A stretch of 64,000 bases of DNA from a bacterium (GTDB lineage Bacteria; Zhuqueibacterota; Zhuqueibacteria; Zhuqueibacterales; Zhuqueibacteraceae). Below the pieces are notes generated by a model that was given only the letters and a program-made list of their open reading frames with translations, had not been told where the DNA came from and made no database searches. This document shows, piece by piece, positions 25,322 to 32,709 of this stretch (the first letter of the stretch is position 1; each line of letters starts with the position of its first letter). The position numbers and the translations under genes were made by a program. Where the stretch lies: positions 9,482-73,481 of the forward strand of contig JBIOXB010000241.1 of assembly GCA_044869275.1 (NCBI GenBank). The letters run 5' to 3'.

Positions 25322-26437
25322 TCATTTCGGATATCGAATCCACCCGCTCACCAGGCCGTTGTCGCCCAGGATTTTCCAGCGCGGCTTGACGAGATGGATG
25401 GCCTCGCTCATATTGGCGATGGGCAAGCCTCGAAACGCAGGCACGCCTTCGCCCAAAATCATGGGCGCAAAAAAACAGGTGAGGCGGTCGGCAAGTTTTT
25501 CTTCCAAAAAGCTGGTAAAGATGCGCCGGCCGCCTTCCACCAGCACGGCCGCGAGGCCTTCCTGCCCGATACGCTCCAGGGCCTGGCTCAAGTGCAAGTG
25601 GCCCGAAGGCGTCGGCGATACGTGCCACACTTTTGCGCCGCGCTGCTCGATCTCCGCGGCTTTGCCATGTTCCTTGCAATCGCTGGAAATGATGATGACC
25701 GTGCGCTCGACGTGGGCATCGTTCAGCACTTTGGCAGTCATCGCCACGCGCAGATGGCTGTCCAACACGATGCGCCGGGGTTGGGGCCCTTCTTCATACC
25801 GCACGGTCAAGCGCGGATCGTCCGCGAGTATGGTGCCAATTCCCACCAGCACCGCATCCGTTTGCCAGCGCCAACGATGCGTGAGCCGGCGCGCGCGTTC
25901 GTTGCTGATCCAGCGCGATTGGCCGTGCTGATCCGCGATTTTGCCGTCGACACTTTGCGCGATTTTGAGTGTGACAAAAGGCAAGCGCGTGGTGATGTAT
26001 TTGAAGAAGCTTTCGTTTAATTCACGGCAAGCTTCGGCAAGCAAACCAGTTTCGACTGAAACTCCGCTTTCACGCAAAACTTTAATGCCCCGGCCGTTCA
26101 CGAGAGGATTCGGATCAACACTCCCCAAAACCACGCGCGTGATACCGGATTCGATGATGCGATTGACGCAGGGCGGGGTTTTGCCAAAATGGCTGCAAGG
26201 CTCGAGCGTGCAGTAAAGCGTGGCATTGCGCGCCAGATGTCCGGCTTCACGCAAAGCTTCAACTTCGGCATGATCACCACCAAATTTGCGGTGATAACCT
26301 GCGCCGACGATCTCTCGCTCACGCACCACCACGGCACCGACCAAGGGATTCGGGCTGACAAACCCTCGCCCACGCAAGGCCAGCTGCACGGCTTTCTTGA
26401 GAAACTCGCGATCCGCCTGTGAAAATGAAGACGCCAA
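25322..26437 (-). CDS. ribD: Riboflavin biosynthesis deaminase/reductase
   Basis: PNPLVG, HAE, TLEPCSHFGKTPPC, SVDGKIA, LVEGG. Confidence 0.97.
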   Translation of the reverse strand: MASSFSQADREFLKKAVQLALRGRGFVSPNPLVGAVVVREREIVGAGYHRKFGGDHAEVEALREAGHLARNATLYCTLEPCSHFGKTPPCVNRIIESGITRVVLGSVDPNPLVNGRGIKVLRESGVSVETGLLAEACRELNESFFKYITTRLPFVTLKIAQSVDGKIADQHGQSRWISNERARRLTHRWRWQTDAVLVGIGTILADDPRLTVRYEEGPQPRRIVLDSHLRVAMTAKVLNDAHVERTVIIISSDCKEHGKAAEIEQRGAKVWHVSPTPSGHLHLSQALERIGQEGLAAVLVEGGRRIFTSFLEEKLADRLTCFFAPMILGEGVPAFRGLPIANMSEAIHLVKPRWKILGDNGLVSGWIRYPK

Positions 26438-26542: not shown

Positions 26543-26593
26543 AGTATCCAGTAAACAGTGTCCAGTGACACTGAACACTGAACACTGGATACT
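26543..26593. repeat. 7-mer-built inverted repeat (AGTATCC AGTAAAC AGTGTCC AGTG / ACTGAAC ACTGAAC ACTGGAT ACT)
   Basis: 7-bp periodicity and mirror arms in the divergent ribD/cmoA intergenic region. Confidence 0.75.
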
Positions 26594-26684
26594 GATTTTG
26601 TGCTTGACAACGCATGCCCGTTTTAGCATATTTTGATGATTATCGTCGCATCTAATTGCAGCAAGCCGCTTTGGAGAATATACC

Positions 26685-27410
26685 ATGACTCATGATGAAC
26701 TGTTTCGCAGCAAGAAACAAATGATCAATGATTTTGATTTTGGCGAGAACACGGCGCGCGTGTTCGATGATATGCTCAATCGCTCCGTGCCTTCTTACGG
26801 CGAGATCCAGCGCATGATGGCTGAAATCGCCGGGTACTTCGCCGTGGCGCACACCAATGTCTACGATCTAGGCTGTTCCACCGGCGAAACGTTTCTCTCC
26901 CTCGATTCCCAAGTCCCGCCCGAGGTCACGTTCATCGGGATTGACTCTTCCCATGAAATGCTGGAAAAGGCCAAGAAAAAAATGGACGAGGCCAGGGTTG
27001 CTCACGCCTACGACCTGATCCAGTCCGATTTGAATCAAGGCGTCAATATTGACAACGCCTCGGTGGTCATCATGAACCTAACCTTGCAGTTTATCCGCCC
27101 GCTTTACCGGGAAAAGCTGGTGAGAAGCATCGCGCACGGTCTCAACGACGGCGGGTGTTTGATGGTGGTGGAAAAAGTATTGAGCCCGGATTCGCTCATT
27201 AATCGCTTGTTCATCAAATTCTATTATGATTTCAAAAAACGCAACGGCTATGATGAGCTCGAAATCAAGCAAAAACGAGAAGCCCTGGAAAACATTTTGA
27301 TCCCTTACCATTACGATGAAAACCGGCTGCTGTTGCTGGCGAATGGCTTCAAGGCCTGCGAGTGTTTCTTTCGCTGGTATAACTTCTGTGGCATTATTGC
27401 GGTGAAATAA
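26685..27410 (+). CDS. cmoA: Carboxy-S-adenosyl-L-methionine synthase
   Basis: DFDF..VFDDMLNRSVPSY, YDLGCSTG, NLTLQF, QKREALEN (conserved Arg that contacts the carboxyl group), WYNF..IAVK. Confidence 0.88.
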   Translation: MTHDELFRSKKQMINDFDFGENTARVFDDMLNRSVPSYGEIQRMMAEIAGYFAVAHTNVYDLGCSTGETFLSLDSQVPPEVTFIGIDSSHEMLEKAKKKMDEARVAHAYDLIQSDLNQGVNIDNASVVIMNLTLQFIRPLYREKLVRSIAHGLNDGGCLMVVEKVLSPDSLINRLFIKFYYDFKKRNGYDELEIKQKREALENILIPYHYDENRLLLLANGFKACECFFRWYNFCGIIAVK

Positions 27411-27419
27411 AGCACGGTC

Positions 27420-28157
27420 ATGGGCACAACCTTGGAAAACTTTTTCATCACTCTTGGAAAATTCTTCTTTAAATACCGCAATGCTTTTTTCCCAATCGTC
27501 TATGTTTGCCTGATTCTGTTCACCCGCCCCGGCTTGTTTTGGGGGAATGCGCAATGGGACAAATTTGCCTGCGCGCTCGGCGTGTTGCTGGCGCTTTCCG
27601 GCCAGGCATTTCGAATTCTGGTTATTGGGTTCGCGTATATCCGGCGGGGCGGAAAAGACGGCAAAGTATTTGCGGAATCCCTGGTGCAAACCGGGTTTTA
27701 TGCGCACACGCGAAATCCAATGTACGTCGGAAACTACCTCATTCTCCTGGGATTTGTGTTGCTCTATGGATCGCTGTGGGGGTACATCTTGGTTCTGCCT
27801 CTTTTCACTTTGATCTATTATGCGATTGTGAAAAATGAGGAGAGCTATTTAAAGCAGACATTTGGTCAGGAATATGCCGCATACGAAGCCAGCGTCAGCA
27901 GGTTTATCCCCAATTTCCGGGGGATAAAAAACTCACTGCAAAAGTACCACTATGACTGGAAGAAAGTCTTGAGCAAGGAATATGGCACCATTTCTCTGCT
28001 TTTGGCCGCCATATTGATCGTGTTGATCTGGAAAGAAGCGGTGATCTTTGGCTATGATCAGATGCGAAGCCAAATCGGAGTTTGGGCGCTGTGGTTTATT
28101 CCGATCATTCTTTTCTATGGCATCACGCGCTACTTGAAGAAAACCGATAGATTGTGA
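27420..28157 (+). CDS. ICMT/PEMT-family integral membrane methyltransferase, LmtA-like
   Basis: Multiple TM helices; 'LVQTGFYAHTRNPMYVGN', 'EESYLKQTFGQEYAAY...RFIP'; N-terminal 'GKFFFKYR'. Confidence 0.85.
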   Translation: MGTTLENFFITLGKFFFKYRNAFFPIVYVCLILFTRPGLFWGNAQWDKFACALGVLLALSGQAFRILVIGFAYIRRGGKDGKVFAESLVQTGFYAHTRNPMYVGNYLILLGFVLLYGSLWGYILVLPLFTLIYYAIVKNEESYLKQTFGQEYAAYEASVSRFIPNFRGIKNSLQKYHYDWKKVLSKEYGTISLLLAAILIVLIWKEAVIFGYDQMRSQIGVWALWFIPIILFYGITRYLKKTDRL

Positions 28158-28206: not shown

Positions 28207-28233
28207 AAAAAAAGGCCTCTGGCGGAGGCCTTT
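28207..28233 (-). terminator. Intrinsic terminator of nrdJ
   Basis: AAAGGCCTC...GAGGCCTTT hairpin with a T7 tract on the minus strand. Confidence 0.75.
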
Positions 28234-28259: not shown

Positions 28260-30650
28260 TTACAGCATGACTTCGCAGGATCCCGCCAGGCACGCCAGCT
28301 CCTGCGCCGCCGTGGTCAAATCTTCCTCTTCATAATAATACAATTTCGAGAAGTCGATTTGCGGGAAGGCAGCGGCGAGGCGCCGGTATTCTTCGGCCGT
28401 GATCTCGACATAAGGCATTTGGTGATATTGCGCGTCGAAGGCAGGCAGAAAAGTCATGCCGCCGATCACCTCGCGATGATCCCACGTCCATTTGATGACG
28501 TCCAGCACCTCATCGGGATGGTAGGTGATGGTGACGCTGGGATTGTGCTCGGTCCAATGCAGCTTGTTTTGCAGCCAGTACTGGCATTGCTCGAGCGCGG
28601 TGCGATCCTTGCGCGTGACGGCATGGTCCGGCGCTTTCACGGGAAAATGCACGACCCAGGTGTTGGCATTTTCCGGTGTCTGGCCGTTTTCCGGATCCAT
28701 GGGCACGCCGGCGTCTTTCAGCACTTTGAAGATGGGCGTATGCGTGCCCACGCGCACGTTGCGAATGTAGTAATTCGACCAGCGCGCGTGAATGCCCGGC
28801 GAGCAATCGAACAATTGCGAAGAATTGCCTGAAGGCTTCACGCAGGTAATCGAGACTGAAGGATTGATGGCGAGCTTCTCCGCTGCGGCGCGATTGACGG
28901 TGAGGGCAAATTCTTTCAAACGGCGCTGCACTTCGGGGTCTTGTGCAATGGGAGTGTCCAACTGACCGTTGATATCCACGCCCAACAGGCGCTCCTCCTC
29001 GCAATTTTGTTGCCATTGCGGGCGCAGGCCGGGAAAATGCGTGGCCATGGACTGAATCGTGCCGATGATGGTGGCGAGTTCGACTTTTTCTTGCAAGCTT
29101 GCGAAGGTATCTTGCGGCCGCGCGATAGCGATGGACAAATTGCAGAACTCAAAGGGCCGCAACACGATTTCGCCACAAGGATTGGTGCCGAATTCCCCGG
29201 CCTTGCGGCGCGGAGAACGCGAAGCAATCGCCGCCTCACGATTGAAAATACCCGGCTCGCCACGGCCGCCCTCTGCCATTTCCAGCATCTGCTGCGCGAG
29301 CTCGATTTGGGTCAACCCGCCTTCCGGCCAGACCGCAGAGTTATTGGCGTTCCAGCGCTGGCTGTTTTCACGCTCGAAGTCGCCGCTCTTGGCATTGCGC
29401 ATTTCTTCGTCATCGTAATCGAACAAGGAGATCATCGCGGTGCGGCGCACGCCGCCGGAAACCGCGGCGTTGCCCACGGCGCACATGAGATCGTGTGCAT
29501 CGATCGGCCGCAAGAAACTCCCTTGCCGCGCCAAAATGCGCGCCCGCGCAAATTCCAGCATTTTGCGCAGCGGCTCAGGGCCGGAAGCGCGGCCGCCCTT
29601 TGTGCGTAGCGGCGCGCCTGCCGGACGCAGCTGGGAATAATCGAAGTGAATGTCGCCCCCCTCAAACCAGATGTGCAGGGCTTTACGCAAAGCCGCGGCC
29701 CAGCCTTCGGAGGAATCATCAATCGTGTGCGCTGCCGGCGCAGCTTTGGTTTGGCGGCGCACGCGCGGGAAATCTTCCACATAGCGGCTCTCCACGGAAT
29801 AGCCGACGCCGCACCCACTCATGGAGATGATCAATGCTTCGACAAAAGAATCGATGCTGTCCACCGGCATGTAGGAGCAGTTGTAAATCGCTACGTTGTT
29901 GCGGCGCGCGGCCGGGCCCGCCATCGCGAGCAAGCGCATGGACGGCATCGCGCGCATTTCCAGCATGCCCTGGCGAATGCGGGCATAGGTCTTCTCTTCC
30001 AGACGCGCGTGCGAAAGCTCTTTCAGATATTGGACGGCGCGATCGACGGTTTCAATCCAGGTTTCGCGGCGGTTGAGATCGTAGTTGAAGCGCGAGTATT
30101 TATCGTAGAATTGGAATTTCTGGAGCTGCGTGGGAAAATATTGATCGGACTCGGCAAACGCCCGGCGCACTTCCTTGGGAATCGGGCGGACTTGGCGAAT
30201 CTTGGCATGCTCGGCGCGGTAAAGAATGTAGCGTTTCGCCGCCTCGTATTCGCCCGCGGCTTGCAAGACGGTTTCCACGATGTCCTGTACTTCTTCCACC
30301 GTGGGATGGCTGTACTTTGCCGCAATGATGTTCGCGACTTGTTGCGCCAATTCCGCGACCGGGATATTCGGCTGTCGTCCGAAGCTGGCGAAACAACGCG
30401 TGATCGCGTTTTCGATGCGCGCCACCTCGAAGGCGACCACGCGGCCGTCGCGCTTGGTAATGCTGACTGGGACGGTGACTTGCGATTGATTGGCCGAGGT
30501 TCCGTGGGCATGGTGTTTCCCATTTTTCCGGGGAGCATAAACAGGCGGTTCGGCAATGGCCTCGCGCTTGCTTTCCGGATTCACGGTTTCCGAGGTTGCG
30601 GATGCATTCAATGGATGCTGGTTCGTGGATGCCATGAGGTCTTCCTCCAT
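28260..30650 (-). CDS. nrdJ: Class II (adenosylcobalamin-dependent, RTPR/monomeric-type) ribonucleotide reductase with N-terminal ATP-cone
   Basis: ATP-cone 'ITKRDGRVVAF...EEVQDIVE...AAKRYILYR'; 'YNC', 'GGVRRTA', 'GTNPCGEI', 'TCVKPSG'; C-terminal redox pair 'CLAGSC'. Confidence 0.88.
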   Translation of the reverse strand: MEEDLMASTNQHPLNASATSETVNPESKREAIAEPPVYAPRKNGKHHAHGTSANQSQVTVPVSITKRDGRVVAFEVARIENAITRCFASFGRQPNIPVAELAQQVANIIAAKYSHPTVEEVQDIVETVLQAAGEYEAAKRYILYRAEHAKIRQVRPIPKEVRRAFAESDQYFPTQLQKFQFYDKYSRFNYDLNRRETWIETVDRAVQYLKELSHARLEEKTYARIRQGMLEMRAMPSMRLLAMAGPAARRNNVAIYNCSYMPVDSIDSFVEALIISMSGCGVGYSVESRYVEDFPRVRRQTKAAPAAHTIDDSSEGWAAALRKALHIWFEGGDIHFDYSQLRPAGAPLRTKGGRASGPEPLRKMLEFARARILARQGSFLRPIDAHDLMCAVGNAAVSGGVRRTAMISLFDYDDEEMRNAKSGDFERENSQRWNANNSAVWPEGGLTQIELAQQMLEMAEGGRGEPGIFNREAAIASRSPRRKAGEFGTNPCGEIVLRPFEFCNLSIAIARPQDTFASLQEKVELATIIGTIQSMATHFPGLRPQWQQNCEEERLLGVDINGQLDTPIAQDPEVQRRLKEFALTVNRAAAEKLAINPSVSITCVKPSGNSSQLFDCSPGIHARWSNYYIRNVRVGTHTPIFKVLKDAGVPMDPENGQTPENANTWVVHFPVKAPDHAVTRKDRTALEQCQYWLQNKLHWTEHNPSVTITYHPDEVLDVIKWTWDHREVIGGMTFLPAFDAQYHQMPYVEITAEEYRRLAAAFPQIDFSKLYYYEEEDLTTAAQELACLAGSCEVML

Positions 30651-32119: not shown

Positions 32120-32587
32120 TCAATTCCACTCTTCACGATCGTCCCAATCCAGGCTGTCGTCCTCTTCGTCAAGACTCTCTTCATCCTCCCATTCTTCGTC
32201 TTCCCATTCTTCCTCGTCATCCAGATCTTCTTCTTCCTCCCAATCTTCTTCCTCCTCTTCTTCTTCATCATCATCTTCTTCCCAATCGGCGTCGTCCCAC
32301 TCCTCCAAATCATCCGCGTCTTCTTCTTCCTCCTCGTCCAATTCTTCCTCGGGCTCCTCCGCCTCAGCGTCATCCTTTTCTTCTTCCTCTTCTTCCCACT
32401 CTTCTTCAGGCTCTTCTTCGTCGGGTCCGGCTTTGCGCCTGGGCATGCCGTAGAGCGGCAAGGGCGACTCCTCGGCATGGTCCAAACGGAATTGAGAAAA
32501 GCCCGCCGCCAGACTCATCAGCGATGCGAAATCGCCGGTGAAGCGTTCATCTGGGCGCAGCTCCTCGGTTTGAAACTTGGTCAACAT
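32120..32587 (-). CDS. Hypothetical protein with a very long Glu/Asp-rich tail punctuated by Trp
   Basis: GGAGAAG RBS before MLTKFQ; about 100 residues almost entirely E/D; in operon orientation. Confidence 0.7.
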   Translation of the reverse strand: MLTKFQTEELRPDERFTGDFASLMSLAAGFSQFRLDHAEESPLPLYGMPRRKAGPDEEEPEEEWEEEEEEKDDAEAEEPEEELDEEEEEDADDLEEWDDADWEEDDDEEEEEEEDWEEEEDLDDEEEWEDEEWEDEESLDEEDDSLDWDDREEWN

Positions 32588-32709
32588 TTTCTTCTCCTTG
32601 GGAGTTTTGGTCATCCAATTCGATTCGCCTGGCTCATGCAACAACCCTCGTTGTTTGCCGGGAGGCGATTTTCAACTTTTATAACAACCTGGCAAGGTTG
32701 ATTGGCAAA

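Follow-up and report, generated by a model that had tools for sequence, protein, structure and literature searches.

Carboxy-SAM made by CmoA is known to be used by CmoB in tRNA modification, and a cmoA gene without cmoB raises the question of what would use its product. Such a gene lies in a 64,000-nucleotide stretch of DNA (the window) from a bacterium of the family Zhuqueibacteraceae, directly before a gene for a membrane protein of the ICMT/PEMT type. The original prediction was that the membrane protein takes carboxy-SAM as its donor and carboxymethylates lipid A or another membrane substrate. We examined the two genes, their occurrence together in other genomes, and the evidence on the donor and acceptor of the putative membrane enzyme.

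The gene pair and its products

The two genes are on the plus strand, separated by 9 bases, and lie between ribD and the class II ribonucleotide reductase gene nrdJ, as originally described (Table 1). The description of them as the sole plus-strand pair in the window also fits; among the long ORFs examined, the others on the plus strand overlap minus-strand genes. The GC contents of gene 1 (49.2%) and gene 2 (46.9%) are the two lowest among the 36 long genes listed, compared to 55.1% for the window, and the GC3 of the pair (0.66 and 0.61) is within the range of the other long genes (0.57-0.77). Gene 2, which had been called AT-rich, is thus low in GC but ordinary in GC3, so that its AT-richness is mild. 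In run X2, from a second study, one contig reads across the junction between the genes. One RNA run contained only two 151-base pieces within cmoA, which we did not count as transcription. In an unpublished genome of the same genus, G158 (L017 and L034 are one locus), the pair has different neighbors than in the source genome, G000, and for this reason the pair behaves as an inserted cassette.

Table 1. Features of the window around the gene pair, and loci of related proteins in the window's phylum.
Feature	Location	Strand	Basis or remark
ribD	25322..26437	-	flanks the pair
Imperfect short tandem repeat, 7-8 base unit	26555..26596		in the ribD-cmoA gap, just upstream of the promoter match
Sigma-70-like promoter match (TTGACA, 17 nt, CATATT)	26604..26632	+	consensus scan, 10/12 matches; upstream of cmoA; consensus match alone
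RBS-like GGAG	26673..26676	+	8 bases 5' of the cmoA start, from sequence
Gene 1: cmoA, putative carboxy-SAM synthase, partner-linked subgroup, 241 aa	26685..27410	+	TIGR00740, PDB 4gek alignment, conservation table
Gene 2: ICMT/PEMT-fold membrane transferase, RGG clade, 245 aa, candidate carboxymethyltransferase	27420..28157	+	PF04191, structure match, tree
Y73-I-x-R76-G77-G78 loop, clade signature	27636..27653	+	TSG in the LmtA-like group
Terminator-like hairpin between the cassette and the convergent reductase gene	28211..28233	both	consensus scan
Class II ribonucleotide reductase	28260..30650	-	N-terminal ATP cone; below the cut-offs of TIGR02505 and TIGR02504
174-aa ORF	32120..32644	-	long Glu/Asp-rich tail
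LmtA-like loci of the phylum	L119, L122, L125, L127, L131, L135-L137, L139, L142, L144, L148-L159		
190-aa lpxB-linked loci	L124, L126, L130, L134, L138, L143, L208-L219, L221-L223		

Gene 1 contains the CmoA signatures ascribed to it (RSVPxY, DLGCSTG, NxTLQF, and QKRxxLEN). In profile searches it scored 240.3 bits with TIGR00740, above the cut-off of 193.3, and 175.7 bits with PRK15451, below the cut-off of 285 of that narrower model. The protein aligns over its full length with CmoA from E. coli (PDB 4gek; E 1.5e-48). Its R198 is equivalent to R199 of the E. coli protein (chain residue 213 in 4gek, with a 14-residue tag offset), and a conservation table showed this residue in 85/85 partner-linked CmoA proteins. 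R199 binds the carboxylate of carboxy-SAM (PMC4482062). On average, partner-linked CmoA proteins are 58% identical to one another and 37% identical to cmoB-linked CmoA, from which they have many fixed differences that include L132, Y180, Y181, and W231. By analogy with its characterized homologues, gene 1 is predicted to make carboxy-SAM from SAM and prephenate. A chorismate mutase domain is encoded in G000, where gene 1 is the sole CmoA; this genome is 94.4% complete. The absence of cmoB that was seen in the window extends to G000 as a whole, where TIGR00452 (cut-off 275) gave a best score of 38.4 bits. A search of G000 for a U32 hydroxylase returned no match to PF01136.

Gene 2 has the predicted ICMT/PEMT fold (PF04191, 51.2 bits; cut-off 25). 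Its best full-length family match is to TIGR04571 (LmtA), over residues 12-242, with a score of 81.2 bits that is far under the cut-off of 325. Its likeness to LmtA is thus that of a relative, and it is not a member of the LmtA family. The model for ICMT proper, NF040696, gave 45.5 bits (cut-off 160). A predicted structural model had a mean pLDDT of 82.9, with values below 50 for loop 73-92, and the structures that matched it best were ICMT: 5vg9 (Z 10.5, rmsd 3.4, 133 aligned) and a further match from the ICMT/Ste14 set of PDB 5vg9, 5v7p, and 4a2n (Z 9.4, rmsd 3.1, 137 aligned). Foldseek with the same model found no match at E <=0.001. Compared with ICMT/Ste14 from this set, the fold is common and R65 of gene 2 aligns with R173 of beetle ICMT, but gene 2 has no Arg at the R246 position and has approximately 80 extra C-terminal residues. 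We take R173 and R246 to be the arginines that bind the substrate carboxylate in ICMT.

A basic loop in gene 2, YIRRGGKDGK, had been proposed to accommodate the extra carboxylate of carboxy-SAM. The core of this loop, R76-G77-G78, is invariant in 102/102 distinct cmoA-adjacent partner proteins, a count from which 3 duplicates and repeated loci were left out, but R75, K79, and K82 vary. Alignment with HMMER placed R76 in the F184-H186 segment of beetle ICMT, which presumably lines the cofactor site. The RGG loop, which lies in the part of the model with pLDDT below 50, may sit near the sulfonium and would then favor the extra carboxylate of carboxy-SAM. The full RGG was found in 0/8 relatives from cmoA-less genomes in the order of G170, a Chitinophagaceae MAG; these had RAG (4), HGG (3), or RYG (1) instead. 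R76 itself was retained in 5/8, and the eight represent about three lineages. The relatives with a RAG or HGG loop (L173-L179) are the natural place to look for proteins that have gone back to methyl transfer.

In a tree of 65 proteins, where LmtA-like proteins scoring 187-248 bits on TIGR04571 stood in for LmtA from Leptospira, the RGG clade, the LmtA-like proteins, and a group of 190-aa proteins were each separated from the rest at a single branch (support 98, 100, and 99). We did not retain a reading of the RGG clade as the sister of LmtA: long branches met with the generic outgroups, and without outgroups the three groups simply separate.

Coupling of cmoA and its partner across genomes

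The gene-neighborhood check suggested in the original prediction showed that cmoA adjoins the partner gene in 5/5 GTDB loci, from a same-genus genome, two Calditrichota, Limisphaerales, and Chitinophagaceae. In metagenomes, a cmoA-like gene was beside the partner in 75/80 loci, which were the best 80 of 522 matches; the 75 include several cmoA genes cut by contig ends, L070, L076, and L089, which look like remnants, and two pairs with a divergent CmoA-like gene (L050 and L100). Two of the five exceptions (L036 and L048) are truncated. The other three (L055, L094, and L110) are real, with RGG kept and no intact cmoA alongside. Plasmid records with a CmoA identity of at least 49% were paired in 18/18 cases (Ensifer, Rhizobium, Sinorhizobium, and Gemmatirosa).

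The coupling also holds when counted from cmoA. In the window's phylum, cmoA was found in 14/167 genomes; it adjoins the partner in 4 of these and cmoB in 9, and in 1 it is at a contig end. The order of G170 has cmoA in 14/351 genomes, and 15/15 copies are beside the partner. In the class of G169 (301 genomes), the partner adjoins cmoA in 4/4 cases. No cmoA was detected within approximately 1.5 kb at 26 outgroup loci, and cmoB exceeded its cut-off in 0/5 and 0/20 cassette carriers, two sets that overlap. Linkage was seen in Calditrichota, Verrucomicrobiota, Bacteroidota, Pseudomonadota, and Gemmatimonadota, and hosts identified by protein name only are Omnitrophota, Nitrospirota, and Planctomycetota. 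The pairing is kept across at least seven named phyla, some by protein name only, and cmoB was found in none of the cassette-bearing genomes examined.

Pairwise distances of CmoA and partner proteins were correlated (Mantel rho 0.53, 76 non-redundant pairs), with 0/999 permutations as high. This correlation shows that the pair travels as a unit, no more. The cassette occurs in three gene arrangements, and most of its loci have unrelated neighbors. A scan of 195 flanking ORFs found no constant third gene. As judged from these comparisons of sequence and gene order, cmoA and its partner are a mobile two-gene cassette. Its cultured carriers include Ensifer adhaerens Casida A, Ensifer canadensis T173, Rhizobium grahamii, and Gemmatirosa kalamazoonensis.

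Several individual loci have features of their own. The Chitinophagaceae genome G170 contains two separate cassette copies (L160 and L182). In Ensifer, genes for a response regulator and a histidine kinase come after the cassette (L188:7985-10701, L189:7801-9847), as does a PAP2 phosphatase gene in E. canadensis, and two-component genes also flank the cassettes at L020, L021, and L044. No direct fusion of CmoA to the partner was found among 7999 long candidates scored, which is weak evidence; the three long matches in this search are double ICMT-domain proteins. Proteins with tandem double ICMT-like domains are P0121, P0282, P0283, P0231, and P0238. P0121 has an RGG-clade domain first and a divergent one second.

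Proposed donor and acceptor of the membrane enzyme

A C-terminal chorismate mutase is fused to twelve partner proteins (five, and then seven more), and RGG is kept in all five of the fusions inspected. The twelve may derive from one origin event, with identities of 41-50% among the five compared. Chorismate mutase makes prephenate, the co-substrate of CmoA (PMC10491745). A fusion of this enzyme to the partner makes sense only if prephenate is consumed, which argues against a plain SAM methyltransferase. The cassette at L035 is inside a string of aromatic pathway genes (trpA, chorismate mutase, DAHP synthase, prephenate dehydrogenase, and aroA), and DAHP synthase is near 4/88 loci. Gene 2 also shares with carboxy-SAM carboxymethyltransferases the trait of genetic linkage to a carboxy-SAM synthase. 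In two of these, a basic residue selects carboxy-SAM: Lys91 in CmoB (PMC4482062) and Arg350 in CmoX (PMC12783734). Overall, the partner probably uses carboxy-SAM as its donor.

The cmoA slot before the partner is filled at L050 (878-1627) and L100 (upstream of 4159) by a divergent CmoA-like gene. Its product has approximately 28% identity to both other CmoA types, is related to phage enzymes, including a verified one of which it is a distant relative (28% identity), and has no Arg at the R199 column. Both copies are under the TIGR00740 cut-off, with 144.5 bits for the one at L050.

Evidence on the acceptor comes in part from the closest relatives of gene 2 in the window's phylum, which are putative ICMT-fold proteins of 190 aa (181 columns, probability 100). 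R20, R65, and N105 are common to both. The 190-aa proteins differ from gene 2 in being shorter, in having another loop, and in being fixed before lpxB without cmoA. Their genes are directly before lpxB in 11/14 loci, in 10/10 further genomes from the family of G000, and in 5/6 others. A dehydrogenase gene that we assume to be gnnA-like, and name so here, often precedes them; its NF040723 score is below the cut-off. The 190-aa gene, fixed before lpxB across much of the phylum, is itself a candidate lipid A methyltransferase outside Leptospira.

The lpxB-linked gene occurs in 14/19 genomes from the family of G000, the unpublished G162 being one of the 14. Among those at least 90% complete it occurs in 9/11, and the two that do not have it are both cassette carriers, G000 and G158, in which proA comes before lpxB; the other three genomes without it are 75-82% complete. 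In the family of G109 it occurs in 13/14 genomes, the one without it being the carrier G109 (70% complete), where 40 bases separate the gnnA-like gene from lpxB within a single contig. The gene is kept by 9/9 complete non-carriers in the first family and 13/13 non-carriers in the second. This displacement pattern goes back to two independent events; G109, which shows one of them, is 70% complete, and the other depends in part on the unpublished G158. Among the matches listed, 90/92 genomes of the phylum with a match have one such enzyme only. The exclusion between the cassette and the lpxB-type gene is not strict because the Calditrichota carriers G167 and G168 keep both the cassette and a gnnA-linked 190-aa gene.

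Other observations at the loci concern the envelope. PF13231 GT-C glycosyltransferases, which we take to be ArnT-like, adjoin 12/88 loci, and a lipid A acyltransferase adjoins 3/88, all in one lineage. We found lpxC in 4/5 carriers examined, G000 has both lpxC and lpxB, and the named hosts are all diderm lineages. Overall, the chances that the acceptor is lipid A or LPS appear evenly balanced. The proposal of carboxy-SAM-dependent lipid carboxymethylation is in this way partly supported, by the coupling, the fusions, the loss of the loop together with cmoA, and the missing sister enzyme. Taken as a whole, a carboxy-SAM-dependent membrane carboxymethyltransferase acting on lipid A is the best explanation of the data, with a probability of about 50%.

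According to this proposal, CmoA would make carboxy-SAM from SAM and prephenate in the cytoplasm, and the ICMT-fold partner in the inner membrane would bind it at the cytoplasmic face, where the invariant R76-G-G loop would favor its extra carboxylate. The partner would then carboxymethylate lipid A or one of its precursors. The likeliest site would be the 1-phosphate, the one methylated by LmtA in Leptospira, an assignment to this position in particular that we make tentatively. The product would have a phosphoglycolate-type cap with a predicted mass shift of +58 Da (carboxymethyl) instead of +14 Da (methyl), masking the phosphomonoester with negative charge retained. E. coli supplies carboxy-SAM itself.

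We considered other explanations for these results. ICMT-fold enzymes act on varied lipophilic acceptors, and the partner could use carboxy-SAM on a phospholipid head group, a polyprenyl-phosphate-linked sugar, a lipophilic thiol or phenol, or a lipoprotein. All of the coupling evidence fits this equally, and it is also consistent with the mostly unrelated neighborhoods of the cassettes, with the RGG clade being without the LmtA-type arginine, and with the lpxB-type enzyme being retained in two carriers (G167 and G168). We nonetheless regard it as rather unlikely given that the groups found nearest to the RGG clade are either LmtA-like or lpxB-linked, that the lpxB-linked gene is missing from carriers of two families, that the named hosts are all diderm, and that envelope-modification neighbors recur in several lineages.

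It is more doubtful still that the partner is an ordinary SAM methyltransferase with CmoA beside it for another reason, for example with carboxy-SAM as a regulator or inhibitor, or with a CmoA subgroup whose product is another SAM derivative or which supplies the membrane enzyme as a methyltransferase in its own right. To our knowledge, all characterized ICMT-fold transferases use SAM. The many fixed differences between partner-linked and cmoB-linked CmoA and the retention of R76 in 5/8 cmoA-less relatives also fit such an arrangement, but R198 in 85/85 partner-linked CmoA proteins, the prephenate consumption implied by the chorismate mutase fusion, and the filling of the same slot twice by a divergent CmoA-like gene argue against it. 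An incidental pairing, where CmoA serves a soluble consumer that acts on tRNA, DNA, or a small molecule while the membrane gene is carried along, is largely refuted by the near-perfect two-way coupling across phyla in three gene arrangements. The correlated divergence of the proteins (rho 0.53) and the 0/26 outgroup loci with cmoA leave it highly improbable even though G000 is 94% complete and holds further methyltransferases.

Comparison with known systems

An orphan cmoA with a new transferase is of a known kind, as exemplified by TglE/TglF, MccS, and CmoX. MccB is the transferase of the microcin C pathway. We found no description of a cmoA-ICMT-fold pair or of carboxymethylated lipid A in the mainly open-access literature searched; the supplements of the CmoX and CmoB papers hold neighborhood analyses that could mention such a pair. 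The earlier view of CmoB as the sole characterized consumer of carboxy-SAM is out of date, since it also serves TglF, CmoX, and the microcin C pathway (PMC12783734, PMC10491745). In the papers surveyed, all consumers are soluble and their substrates are nucleic acid, peptide, or nucleotide.

If the lipid A carboxymethyltransferase proposed here exists, carboxymethyl transfer would have arisen independently in an ICMT-fold consumer, and this chemistry would be new for the envelope. The methylated form of the lipid A phosphate has been described as unique to Leptospira (PMC10248169). A carboxymethylated form spread among bacteria of soil and sediment and among those associated with plants would add to the known modifications of lipid A and have a bearing on membrane charge and host recognition. 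The new carboxylate might in turn be modified further, as happens in the CmoX/CmoY pathway of the phage, and the second ICMT-like domain behind the RGG domain in P0121, P0282, and P0283 could methylate it. A fuller possibility, which we regard as less likely than not, is that the partner is the first membrane-embedded consumer of carboxy-SAM, capping the lipid A 1-phosphate, and that the RGG, LmtA-like, and lpxB-linked enzymes provide three interchangeable caps. One lipid A site would then have methyl or carboxymethyl caps across many diderm phyla.

LmtA is the lipid A 1-phosphate O-methyltransferase of Leptospira (PMC4402001, PMC10248169). LmtA-like proteins align with gene 2 over 236 columns with a probability of 99.95, and R20, R65, N105, and a C-terminal two-helix extension are common to both. 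They differ in that the gene 2 clade has RGG where they have TSG, is on a separate tree branch, and, like the lpxB-linked group, is without the Arg before EE that they keep; their loci are without cmoA. In the window's phylum, LmtA-like proteins (187-248 bits with TIGR04571, TSG loop) occur in 18/167 genomes, mostly as the sole enzyme of this superfamily branch.

The CmoA/CmoB pathway for tRNA cmo5U in E. coli (PMC4482062) has the same two-gene layout of synthase and transferase as the cassette, but CmoB is a soluble Rossmann enzyme whereas the partner here is a membrane ICMT-fold protein. In TglE/TglF and microcin C MccS (PMC10491745), a CmoA module has been repurposed, and as here the cmoA is an orphan. 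The same is seen in the CmoA/CmoX/CmoY system from phage S-B43 (PMC12783734), where an orphan cmoA marks an adjacent carboxymethyltransferase, as it appears to do in the window. As far as these sources describe them, CmoX, TglF, and the microcin C consumers are soluble enzymes with DNA, a peptide thiol, or a nucleotide as substrate, whereas the candidate described here is predicted to be embedded in the membrane.
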